Source: Candidatus Nanohaloarchaea archaeon
Lineage (GTDB): Archaea > Nanohalarchaeota > Nanosalinia > Nanosalinales > Nanosalinaceae
DNA: 30,691 nt
Direction of reading: 5' to 3'
NCBI GenBank assembly: GCA_042217585.1
Contig: JBDGSJ010000020.1
Location: 1-30,691, forward strand
The notes beneath the pieces were generated by a model, which saw only the letters and a list, made by a program, of their open reading frames with translations, was not told where the DNA came from and ran no database searches. Below are positions 8,267-20,486 of the stretch, piece by piece. The position numbers and the translations under genes were made by a program. The stretch's first letter is position 1, and each line of letters opens with the position of its first letter.

Positions 8267-8408
8267 GGGCCCGTAGCTCAGCCAGGACAGAGCGAGCGGC
8301 TTCGGCTCCCACCGTTCTCCGACAGAGGGAGGACAGGGATAGAGGAGGTCGGTTCCGATCTTCGAGCAAGATACCGCTAGGTCCAGGGTTCAAATCCCTG
8401 CGGGCTCG
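8267..8408 (+). tRNA. tRNA-Arg (TCG) with a 67-nt intron at position 37/38 (intron 8306-8372)
   Basis: Acceptor stem GGGCCCG/CGGGCTC, D arm TAGCTCAGCCAGGACAGAGC, anticodon arm AGCGG-CT-TCG-G[intron]A-CCGCT, T arm CAGGG-TTCAAAT-CCCTG. Confidence 0.88.
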
Positions 8409-17456: not shown

Positions 17457-17735
17457 TCACGCACTGGGTCCCTTGAAGAATCCTTCTTCCTCGTTTTCGG
17501 TGTTAGAGAAGACCTCATCCTTTTCCAGGGTCTCCTCCTTCACATCGTCCCTGGCCTCAGGTTCAACATCCACAGGGTGGAAGGCGGGCTCCACTCCCTC
17601 GGTATCCACCTCTTCTATCTTCTCGAACATCTCAAGTATATCTTCGAACTCCTCCGCGAACTCCTCGGCCTCTTCTTCATCTATATCTATCCTCGCGTTC
17701 TCCGCGGTCCTCCTCACTTCCTCGACATCCACCAT
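17457..17735 (-). CDS. gatC: Asp/Glu-tRNA amidotransferase subunit C
   Basis: 92 aa with ARI, EVDTEGVEP, RDD and GFFKGP; sits in the gatA/gatB cluster. Confidence 0.92.
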   Translation of the reverse strand: MVDVEEVRRTAENARIDIDEEEAEEFAEEFEDILEMFEKIEEVDTEGVEPAFHPVDVEPEARDDVKEETLEKDEVFSNTENEEEGFFKGPSA

Positions 17736-17885
17736 GATCTAATTTTCCGGTCCAAGCTTTTTGAAATCTTCAGGTGGTGTGCCGGAAACAGTTTTCAGGT
17801 CTTTTACAGGCAGATTAGAGGGTCTGTGAACGGTCGTGAACAGTAGATGTTTGATTTCTACGAACAGTCTTTTCCCGTCAAAACC

Positions 17886-17902
17886 ACCAAACATTTATAA
17901 AG
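17886..17902 (+). promoter_or_regulatory. Putative archaeal promoter (TATA box TTTATAA) upstream of the hairpin array
   Basis: TTTATAA at 17894-17900 with an A-rich upstream element; expected transcription start around 17920-17926. Confidence 0.6.
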
Positions 17903-17924
17903 CACAGAATGAAATGTTAGAGTA

Positions 17925-18095
17925 ACAAGACTTGCCTTGTTCGTGTTGGGCCACGAACAGTAGATCCGACTCGTTTGGGCGCGAGTCTGGGTTGACGCGT
18001 TGGGCAACGCATCGTTCGATTCGAGTTGGGCCTCGAATCGGAGTCGAGCTGGGAAGCTCGCGATTCACGTGTGCAAGTTTGGGCTATTGGGCTAA
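17925..18095 (+). ncRNA. Candidate structured ncRNA or leader: multibranch hairpin array with repeated UUGGGC loops
   Basis: Five hairpins with unrelated stems; TTGGGC at 17946, 17975, 18000, 18026, 18079 and 18087; closing helix ACTTGC/GCAAGT; G-U pairs favour the + strand; no credible ORF. Confidence 0.7.
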
Positions 18096-18164
18096 GTTCT
18101 AAGGTAGAATTACCTATACCGACTTAAAAAGGTTAGGTGTACCTACGTCGCGGGCTGGACCACA

Positions 18165-19235
18165 ATGGAATCCATAATCGAAAACACGTCGCAAAACGAG
18201 CAAAAGGAGCAAAACCTTGACGACATAAAGGATGCTAAGATCCTGGTAGTCGGCACTGGTGGCGCCGGCAACAACCAGGTCACACGTATTCAGAAAAAGA
18301 ACGTTGAGGGTGCGGAGACTGTCGCGATCAACACCGACAAGCAGCACCTGAAGATGTCCTCTGCGGACAGAAAGATACTGGTAGGTAAAGAACTTACGAA
18401 GGGGCTCGGCGCCGGCGGCGACCCTGAGACCGGCGGACGGGCAGTCGAGGAAAACCGTGCCGAACTCCGGAGCCTGTTCAAGGACGCCGACATGGTGTTC
18501 CTGACAGCTGGCCTCGGAGGAGGAACCGGAACGGGAACTATCCCTGTCCTCGCGGAGATCGCGAAGAAGGAGGACTGCATAGTGATCGGAACGGTGACGA
18601 TGCCGTTCAGCATCGAGGGAGCACGGATGAGCAAGGCAGAGGACGGTCTCTACCAGCTCAGGCAGCACGTCGACACGGCGATAGTCATCGAGAACGACAG
18701 GCTGCTGGACATAGCGGGCGACATGCCGCTGGACCAGGCATTCGGCGTCGCGGACGAACTCATAACAACGATGATAAAGGGAATCACCGAGACGATCTCC
18801 AAGCCTTCCCTCGTCAACCTTGACTACGCGGACGTCGAGGCAGTGATGAACGAGGGAGGAGTCGCAGTAGTGGGATACGGAGAATCCAACACCAACAACA
18901 AGGGCGAGGAAGCCATACACGAGGCCCTCAGCAATCCGCTGCTCGACGTGGAGTTCGAGGGCGCGAACGGCGCACTCCTGCACGTCGCGGGAGGCGAGGA
19001 CCTCACCCTGAACGAGATCAACGACGTCGGCGAGACGGTAACCGACAAACTGAACCAGCAGGCCCAGGTGATCTGGGGCGCCCGGATCAGGGAAGAACTC
19101 CAGGGCAAACTGCGGGTCATCTCGATCATAACAGGTGTGAAATCCCCCTACGTGCTCGGCGAACTCGAGGAAGAGGAAGAAGCCGAGGTCAAGGGAGACG
19201 TGAACGACCTGGGACTCGAGGTGCTGAACAACTAA
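18165..19235 (+). CDS. ftsZ: Cell division protein FtsZ (FtsZ2-like clade)
   Basis: Motifs GTGGAGNN, AINTDKQHL, GLGAGGDP, GGGTGTG, PSLVNLDYAD, VIWGARI and a C-terminal LGLEVL tail. NTDKQHL and LDYAD resemble archaeal FtsZ2. Confidence 0.96.
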   Translation: MESIIENTSQNEQKEQNLDDIKDAKILVVGTGGAGNNQVTRIQKKNVEGAETVAINTDKQHLKMSSADRKILVGKELTKGLGAGGDPETGGRAVEENRAELRSLFKDADMVFLTAGLGGGTGTGTIPVLAEIAKKEDCIVIGTVTMPFSIEGARMSKAEDGLYQLRQHVDTAIVIENDRLLDIAGDMPLDQAFGVADELITTMIKGITETISKPSLVNLDYADVEAVMNEGGVAVVGYGESNTNNKGEEAIHEALSNPLLDVEFEGANGALLHVAGGEDLTLNEINDVGETVTDKLNQQAQVIWGARIREELQGKLRVISIITGVKSPYVLGELEEEEEAEVKGDVNDLGLEVLNN

Positions 19236-19425: not shown

Positions 19426-19929
19426 GTGAGAAAACCAGTCTTCCTTCTTTCGATAGCACCTCTGCTGGCGCTTTCAGCCTCGCTCGGGATACACAGAGCG
19501 GGACTTCCACCTTACCTGCCGGGGATCCTGGCAACGGCGGCCGCAGTCTCAATGGTTTACGGCAGGAAGATCTCAGGAGGTTACGAGAGGACCTACAGGC
19601 TTAGAGCTCTGGAAGCGGTCTCGCCAGTTATCACGGAGATCTCGCTTTACATAGGTATGCTGGGATCGGAGGTGGTCCCAGGACCTGTCGGAGTGACAGT
19701 CATGGGGCTTCTGCTGCTGAACGGGTCGGTTAGACGTAGGCTCGGAGAAGAGTTCAGGACCAGAACACCTGAAATAACCGGAAACCGGATGAAAGTGGTC
19801 CTTGTGGCTGCTGCTTTCCTAGCGGCGGGCTACGCCAGGTACTCGCTTTTCTACGGTGCGCTGGTCCTTGGCGGCCTCTCAGTATATGAACTCGCTGCCG
19901 TATCCCGGGACACGGCAAGGAATCTCTGA
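19426..19929 (+). CDS. Hypothetical membrane protein
   Basis: Hydrophobic ORF filling the gap between ftsZ and the NusA-like gene; GTG start. Confidence 0.6.
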   Translation: MRKPVFLLSIAPLLALSASLGIHRAGLPPYLPGILATAAAVSMVYGRKISGGYERTYRLRALEAVSPVITEISLYIGMLGSEVVPGPVGVTVMGLLLLNGSVRRRLGEEFRTRTPEITGNRMKVVLVAAAFLAAGYARYSLFYGALVLGGLSVYELAAVSRDTARNL

Positions 19930-19982: not shown

Positions 19983-20486
19983 ATGAAGGCTCCAATATGC
20001 AACGTTTGTCTCAAGAGTGACGTTCTCTGCTCCCACTGCGAGGAGAAACTGGAGAACGGGGAAATATCTGAAATCGAAATCCGGGTCTCGAGGATACTTA
20101 AGGAACTTAGCAACGAGTACGGCTCGCTGAGGGACTCGGAGATCCTGAAGGTCTTCGACACGGACAACGTGGTGATCATAGTCACCGCCGAGGGAGACGG
20201 CGCGAAGGTAGTCGGCAGAAGCGGAGAGATAGTGAAGAAGCTCGCGGACAGGATAGAGAAATCCATCCGGGTGGTCGAGAAGGCCTCGGACGACCGCGAC
20301 GTCATCAAGGGACTGCTTTCGCCGGCGGAGATAGAATCCATAAACACCGTGTTCAAGCCGGAGGGAGAGTCGAAGAAGGTAGTGGTCGACGAGTCCTACG
20401 AGGGCAAGATAAACCTCTCCACGGACGAGTTCGAGCAAGTCATCCAGGAAGTCACGGGCACCAGCTACGAGCTCTCCTTCGAGTGA
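19983..20486 (+). CDS. Archaeal NusA-like KH-domain protein with an N-terminal zinc finger
   Basis: MKAPICNVCLKSDVLCSHC, then a KH GxxG loop (VVGRSGEIVKKL) and IRVVE. Confidence 0.82.
   Translation: MKAPICNVCLKSDVLCSHCEEKLENGEISEIEIRVSRILKELSNEYGSLRDSEILKVFDTDNVVIIVTAEGDGAKVVGRSGEIVKKLADRIEKSIRVVEKASDDRDVIKGLLSPAEIESINTVFKPEGESKKVVVDESYEGKINLSTDEFEQVIQEVTGTSYELSFE

Follow-up and report, generated by a model that had tools for sequence, protein, structure and literature searches.

An array of hairpins with uniform G-rich loops precedes ftsZ in Nanohaloarchaeota and may belong to the leader of a long ftsZ transcript

The CsrB/RsmZ sponges carry repeated GGA loops on variable stems, and the bacterial leaders bound by PyrR, by LicT/SacY at the ribonucleic antiterminator (RAT) and by TRAP contain structured or repeated protein sites that decide the fate of the downstream message. 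We know of no archaeal counterparts of such PyrR/LicT/TRAP-type leaders; regulatory RNAs that act in cis or bind proteins are, to our knowledge, very few in archaea, and none of them controls cell division. Here we describe a hairpin array in a 30,691-nt stretch of DNA of Candidatus Nanohaloarchaea archaeon (GenBank assembly GCA_042217585.1, contig JBDGSJ010000020.1, positions 1 to 30,691), referred to in its whole length as the window. The array lies within the 430-nt gap separating the divergent genes gatC (− strand) and ftsZ (+ strand) and, judged by comparative sequence analysis, represents a structured RNA motif of the Nanohaloarchaeota that is new, well supported, and tied to ftsZ. The relatives of the encoded FtsZ, which include those of Ca. 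Nanosalina J07AB43, Nanohaloarchaea archaeon SG9 and metagenome-assembled genomes (MAGs) of Ca. Nanohalobium, agree with this affiliation. A literature search at the level of titles and abstracts, with most subscription journals outside its scope, found no description of the element.

The array shares with CsrB/RsmZ no more than its architecture and does not belong to that group. The likeness consists in many stem-loops with unrelated stems and one short G-rich loop motif, which makes for a multivalent display of the kind suited to a protein that occupies several sites. The array motif, however, is [U/G]UGGG[C/A] and not GGA, which appears only in lineages with GGGA-type loops; the array is archaeal, fixed upstream of one gene, and has no terminator signal before ftsZ; and it matches no Rfam model, in a genome without other motif-bearing targets. 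The PyrR, LicT/SacY and TRAP systems differ in that they use terminator/antiterminator alternatives, whereas the array has no terminator-like signal. A protein-based counterpart is found at ftsZ2: according to Darnell et al. (2020; PMC7439475), ftsZ2 is cotranscribed with an upstream cdrS in Halobacteria and most archaea, and the cdrS–ftsZ2 pairing occurs in all archaeal clades except DPANN. On that account the two arrangements would have in common a regulatory module placed immediately before ftsZ2, oriented like it, cotranscribed with it, and driven by a regulated promoter farther upstream, but cdrS is a gene for a small ribbon-helix-helix (RHH) protein, whereas the corresponding slot in the Nanohaloarchaeota holds a hairpin array without a conserved open reading frame (ORF). 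No RHH gene was found at ftsZ; the three RHH_1 matches in the genome lie on contigs C32, C12, and C7.

The original prediction, made from the letters of the sequence alone, had drawn five hairpins (H1 to H5) and two further TTGGGC motifs behind them, and all of these are present at their predicted positions (table 1). The Watson–Crick core of H1 spans 17938-59. H4 is orthologous to a hairpin of the relatives, GAUUCGAA/UUGGGC/UUCGAAUC; H3 is an extra hairpin, which appears in the alignment as an insertion of this genome and is absent from most relatives. Some genera have a fourth hairpin in the position of the two unpaired UUGGGC motifs. All six TTGGGC of the window fall within 17946-18092 on the + strand, and among the 67 copies on both strands of the 980-kb genome the ftsZ leader forms the sole cluster.

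Selection on structure together with a loop motif had been proposed from the contrast between unrelated stem sequences and good pairing, and the compensatory changes seen in two alignments bear this out. In a model-fitted alignment of 40 distinct sequences, 96.1% of the cells hold standard pairs, compared with 73.1% when partners are shuffled; 19 of the 22 pairs show compensatory changes, both sides have changed in 193 cells (49 after shuffling), and sliding the partner by 1–3 columns lowers pairing to 21–49%. An alignment of this kind leans toward the structure of the model, and we therefore repeated the count on a MAFFT-only alignment of 11 sequences, where pairing reaches 92.6% against 82.9% in shuffles, 10 of the 22 pairs are compensatory, and slides leave 20–47%. 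The helices orthologous to H1 and H4 have compensatory changes at every pair (7/7 and 8/8), and in the outer hairpins each position has four or five types of pair. Conservation is highest in H2, whose CUCG/CGAG core is nearly invariant and whose loop is closed by a U-G pair in 23/40 sequences. Conserved secondary structure with compensatory changes, as asked of a structured cis-regulatory RNA leader, is present in these alignments.

The same substitutions preserve base pairs and not codons, which speaks against a small protein encoded by the array. There is a 56-codon open frame with a TTG start at 17932-18102, but its product has no Pfam match, the TTGGGC motifs occur in all three frames, and the ORFs across the arrays of 46 relatives differ in frame, length (32–89 codons), and sequence; we regard a coding function as extremely improbable.

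The + strand had been preferred on account of G-U pairs, and across the paired columns of the alignment G-U indeed outnumbers A-C by 70 to 23, or by 30 to 11 when the two loop-closing pairs are left out; the excess marks the + strand because an A-C would read as G-U on the other strand. An alignment-free count agrees: among 47 distinct leaders of 327 nt, each has on average 3.6 hairpins with a GGG loop and a stem of at least 5 bp on the + strand, compared with 0.06 on the − strand; for the first 327 nt of the ftsZ coding region the figures are 0.19 and 0.09, respectively. These patterns favor a + strand RNA rather than cruciform DNA or a series of double-stranded binding sites.

As to known families, scanning the window at Rfam gathering thresholds returned four tRNAs only, and cmscan of 17700-18250 at E ≤ 10 gave one chance miRNA match (E 3.8) and no CsrB/RsmZ model. 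The array thus reaches the gathering threshold of no Rfam 15 family, and the view that it was not a known family holds. The helix ACTTGC (17930-35)/GCAAGT (18073-78), thought to enclose all five hairpins, is present and paired in the minimum free energy fold; as a conserved feature it is not confirmed, since the predicted folds of 29/44 leaders contain long-range pairing at differing positions and those of 15/44 contain none.

The array recurs throughout the Nanohaloarchaeota, to which our genome search extended and in which the order equals the entire phylum (the same 70 genomes). A BLAST search with the region matched 19 of 40 relatives at E below 1e-4, and all 20 loci fetched share one architecture: a TTTATAAA box 225–330 nt before the ftsZ ATG, then 3–5 GGG-loop hairpins, then ftsZ. 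Within the family of the window the hairpins and ftsZ are separated by a block some 45 nt long whose sequence is conserved and includes an invariant TTAAAAA; this 3′ block is what the best BLAST matches cover, at 82–95% identity across genera. A covariance model built on the three orthologous hairpins has one match per genome in 31/50 genomes of the family. A broader model matches 46/70 genomes of the phylum at E ≤ 0.05, among them 24/28 high-quality genomes, with a single match per genome except in one (G048). By inspection of ftsZ upstream regions we found the array in eight genomes that the models missed (G001, G021, G012, G031, G033, G032, G025, and G028), inspection among the genomes without a model match being confined to these eight. 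The models pass over diverged forms, and with the genomes added by inspection the array occurs in all five families. The conservation of loop and structure in relatives, on which the original prediction had made its case depend, is found.

Wherever an array is present it stands between the distal TATA box, here called P1, and the same FtsZ2-like ftsZ paralogue; the other paralogue has none in 4/4 genomes. The window FtsZ scores 346 bits with the M. jannaschii FtsZ homolog 1, compared with 405 bits for the other paralogue, and is also the less similar of the two to bacterial FtsZ; as the more divergent paralogue it is, by these similarity scores alone, probably FtsZ2. In metagenomes, an exact-match scan with an 18-mer of H2 yielded 19 hits, of which 11 are arrays with ftsZ 160–196 nt downstream and the other 8 single matches in different contexts, and a 16-mer of H2 found a single hit in a viral collection, a chance match within a coding region. 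Within the 980-kb genome of the window, 807 hexamers fit [T/G]TGGG[C/A]; 14 have a flanking stem of at least 5 bp and six a stem of at least 6 bp, three of these six belonging to the array. The genome-wide scan for UUGGGC hairpins that had been suggested thus finds none besides the ftsZ array, the sole other long example being a GUGGGA hairpin inside an ORF.

Two observations concern individual records. G048 has its two array-model matches on short contigs (C63 and C12), perhaps because the MAG combines different strains and not because the array is truly duplicated. A record titled Colwellia polaris MAG (L088) encodes a Nanohaloarchaea-type FtsZ (85% identity) with an array upstream, the leader being identical to that of locus L006; the title is probably a binning or labelling error.

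The loops vary in concert. Among about 170 hairpins the commonest loops are UUGGGC (83), GGGC with U-A closure (20), CGGGCA (11), and GUGGGA (9), and the type is uniform per genome: 37/47 loci are of the GGGC type and 10/47 purely GGGA, with four GGGC-type loci holding a single GGGA loop, among them the window with its H5. Other families have CGGGCA/CUGGGCA throughout, or UUGGCG (G028, family f5). Across the lineages the set comprises UUGGGC, CGGGCA, GUGGGA/UUGGGA, and UUGGCG; each genome keeps to one type, and from lineage to lineage the loops change together, as expected if one factor reads all loops of a cell. On the FtsZ tree the GGGA type requires three changes. Independent switches of loop type were considered as a case of convergence and set aside, as the well-supported branches of that tree are also compatible with a single origin.

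What reads the loops might itself be nucleic acid, either through K+-dependent G-quartets formed among four or more GGG loops, giving a salt-responsive fold, or through pairing of UUGGG with a CCCAA-containing RNA such as the anticodon loop of tRNA-Gly(CCC). At least four GGG runs occur in 41/43 arrays, as demanded of an RNA G-quadruplex with four or more G3 tracts, although its formation is a prediction, and 42/43 lack any CCC run, so that the G-rich loops have no internal complement to sequester them. Extreme halophiles of this kind have a high internal K+ concentration, and the organisms are extreme halophiles by lineage. On the other hand, the UUGGCG loops of family f5 offer only GG, the loop-flanking U and C/A are conserved as well although quartets do not need them, the genome has no second cluster of complementary motifs, and in this incomplete genome tRNA-Gly(GCC) is the only tRNA-Gly detected by aragorn. 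We regard such a reader as decidedly improbable.

That a protein can specifically recognize GGG-pyrimidine adjoining a stem is suggested, by analogy only, by the DEAD-box helicase Hera, whose RNA-binding domain is described by Steimer et al. (2013; PMC3695512) as binding exposed single-stranded GGGC/GGGU beside a duplex; Hera differs in being a bacterial protein that acts on rRNA and RNase P RNA.

Both promoter elements of the original prediction, a TATA box of the array's own and a separate TTAAAAA before ftsZ (here P2), are present. In this genome, TTWAWA boxes peak 30–28 nt before leaderless ATGs, a spacing that would place the transcript start of P1 at about 17924, some 12 nt before H1, the distance from the box itself to the first hairpin being about 40 nt. 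In 32/44 loci, the 110 nt preceding P1 contain at least two TGAAC[AG]/[CT]GTTCA motifs. These repeats are likely a transcription-factor site; by their sequence they look like a conserved operator for P1 or for the divergent gatC, and suggest that P1 is regulated. They take the form (C/A)(G/A)TGAACAG(T), frequently with a spacing of about 10 nt and in some cases together with an inverted TGTTCA; genome-wide there are 34 TGAACAGT sites. The 11-nt sequence GAACAGTAGAT is repeated exactly, at 17838-17848 in the TGAACAG region and at 17955-17965 in the 3′ arm of H1, which suggests that part of H1 may derive from, or also serve as, an operator copy.

Oligo-T is the archaeal signal for intrinsic termination. 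Between the predicted start and the ATG of ftsZ, T5+ runs are found in 1/44 predicted transcripts, compared with 22 ± 3 in 300 dinucleotide-preserving shuffles (minimum 14), and T4+ runs in 8/44, compared with 39.7 ± 1.9. The 150 nt upstream of P1 contain T5+ runs in 26/44 loci, and the invariant A5 of the P2 box is a T5 on the opposite strand. This avoidance of oligo-T on the + strand would fit a transcript that must reach ftsZ.

The original prediction had left open whether the array is a protein sponge or scaffold or a structured leader, and the evidence leans to the leader, a CsrB-like sponge being the less likely. On the alternative account, an independent small RNA would start at P1, end or be processed before P2, and act in trans as a sponge or scaffold that titrates a loop-binding protein, ftsZ being transcribed from P2 only. 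An invariant TATA box of its own, a canonical-looking P2 between array and ftsZ, and 3–8 identical G-rich motifs per RNA would suit it. Against it, an oligo-T terminator is found in one predicted transcript only where 22 are expected; the genome offers no competing UUGGGC hairpin to be relieved of its protein; CsrA (PF02599) has no match in this 89.7%-complete genome, with the control positive in three bacterial genomes; the CsrB/RsmZ models fail to match even at E ≤ 10; and each array observed is fixed directly upstream of the same ftsZ paralogue, which is needless for a trans-acting gene. We therefore hold a separate small RNA to be unlikely, though of the alternatives it is the one to which we give most weight.

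The 3′ block poses a different question. RNAalifold assigns it −1.38 kcal/mol, almost no RNA structure, and its TTAAAAA, invariant in the aligned loci, resembles the usual promoter box of this genome; the P2 block is probably a DNA-level promoter or operator. CTATRCCG flanks the P2 box on both sides, and a GGTATAG in between can pair with either copy. Two alternative helices drawn by hand around P2 pair in 81% and 78% of cells, which is suggestive only; the arrangement could represent an operator made of direct repeats or else a small RNA switch.

The hairpins, too, might act as DNA, as cruciform-forming or protein-bound sites upstream of P2 without any RNA function. The neighboring block conserved in sequence and not in RNA structure, the direct and inverted repeats around the P2 box, the TGAACAG repeats taken as a sign of DNA-binding regulators in the region, and complementary arms that would permit cruciforms are all in keeping with this. 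A reader of double-stranded TTGGGC would, however, need no unrelated palindromic flanks, yet compensatory changes keep these paired; the ratio of G-T to A-C in the stems (30 to 11) is of consequence in an RNA but of none in DNA; the depletion of oligo-T is confined to the + strand, whereas the A5 is invariant; and the invariant P1 box stands ahead of the hairpins. A purely DNA-level role seems improbable to us, more so than a small RNA.

We favor the reading that the array belongs to a distal-promoter leader of ftsZ, and give it a probability of about 0.55. P1 would be a dedicated distal promoter, whose + strand RNA runs on through the P2 region into the FtsZ2-like ftsZ, so that the array would form the leader, about 240 nt long, of a long ftsZ mRNA isoform. 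In this leader, 3–6 stem-loops, with stems free to vary while pairing and loops showing one G-rich motif, would present repeated unpaired GGG as a multivalent docking platform for one putative trans-acting reader, for which an RNA-binding protein that oligomerizes or binds cooperatively is the most likely candidate. The reader would decide the stability, translation, or processing of the long isoform, and P2 would yield an isoform with a short leader.

Several points weigh against this reading. The 40-sequence alignment was fitted to the structure of the model, and the shuffle controls overstate significance and independence because the genomes are related, although the direction of the covariation result is, in these sequences, not in doubt despite the kinship. 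The predicted + strand fold (minimum free energy −69.9 kcal/mol, with 3/200 shuffles folding equally well) is weak by itself, with a z score of only −2.6, and the − strand folds at z −5.9. The conserved 3′ block is nearly without predicted RNA structure, and P2 is ordinary-looking with a leader of about 10 nt, so that the main ftsZ mRNA may lack the array. Some 70 nt separate the end of the array from the start codon, so that the hairpins are unlikely to block the initiation of translation directly. Finally, in the syntenic NusA-like protein with its KH domain, encoded downstream of ftsZ, no KH-domain residue tracks the loop type.

This NusA-like gene follows ftsZ in 11/11 genomes checked, and its product matches PRK06418 over the full length with 145 bits, below the cut-off of 175. 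As a candidate reader of the loops it was rejected: no KH-domain column separates the 5 GGGA-type from the 6 GGGC-type genomes, just two C-terminal columns do so, and the protein therefore remains only a neighbor. Between ftsZ and the NusA-like gene there is usually a gene for a small membrane protein (window 19426-19929) that is unannotated and has no match in Pfam.

A more far-reaching version of the leader reading, which we put forward tentatively and hold to be unlikely, is that in the Nanohaloarchaeota, which belong to DPANN, an RNA has come to occupy the place of the cdrS regulator, with 4–8 identical GGG loops shown to a dedicated reader whose coevolution with them is suggested by the concerted loop switches. 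If true, the array would be the first multivalent RNA switch in archaea to act on a cell-division gene, with a bound state that might follow the ionic milieu, through inter-loop G-quartets at molar K+, or contact with the host, so that the symbiont's division would be coupled to its host. The timing of division in DPANN symbionts is an open question on which the array bears. For an uncultured group the comparative support is unusually good, comprising single-copy occurrence, five families, heavy covariation, and concerted loops; the array is a candidate family for RNA databases and would provide a defined RNA bait for the reader as well as a mutable leader, usable in the existing nanohaloarchaeon cocultures.

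Table 1. Coordinates of the array, its promoter elements, and adjacent genes in the window.
Feature	Position	Strand	Sequence or remark
gatC	17457-17735	−	left neighbor, divergent from ftsZ
Operator-like motif TGAAC[AG]G, three direct copies upstream of P1	17827..17867	+	TGAACGG 17827-33, TGAACAG 17837-43, CGAACAG 17861-67
Distal TATA box P1	17894-17901	+	TTTATAAA, AAACA just before; invariant in 20/20 aligned loci
H1	17937-17960	+	TTGTTCGTG/TTGGGC/CACGAACAG, 9 bp including one U-G; loop 17946-51
H2	17968-17987	+	GACTCGT/TTGGGC/GCGAGTC, U-G closing pair
H3	17997-18010	+	GCGTT/GGGC/AACGC, 5-bp stem
H4	18015-18042	+	TTCGATTCGAG/TTGGGC/CTCGAATCGGA, 11-bp stem
H5	18045-18060	+	CGAGCT/GGGA/AGCTCG, 6-bp stem, specific to this genome
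Two UUGGGC motifs outside any strong stem	18079..18092	+	starts 18079 and 18087
Conserved block with proximal TATA-like box P2	18097..18141	+	TTCTAAGGTAGAATTACCTATACCGaCTTAAAAAGGTTAGGTGTA; P2 TTAAAAA at 18124-18130
ftsZ	18165-19235	+	Pfam Tubulin and FtsZ_C, TIGR00065
Zinc-ribbon and KH "NusA-like" protein	19983..20486	+	Pfam KH_5; PRK06418 below cut-off

The neighborhood of the array comprises gatA, a phosphoesterase gene, gatC, ftsZ, and the genes for the membrane protein and the NusA-like protein. An archaeal replication origin with origin recognition box (ORB) repeats was considered for the gap and rejected, there being no orc1/cdc6 among these neighbors and no long A+T-rich stretch in 17740-18165. 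Elsewhere in the window, a 142-nt tRNA match at 8267-8408 (Rfam RF00005, 47.7 bits) presumably contains an intron, and the number of tRNA genes that aragorn reports for the genome differs between searches with and without introns (18 against 25 genes).

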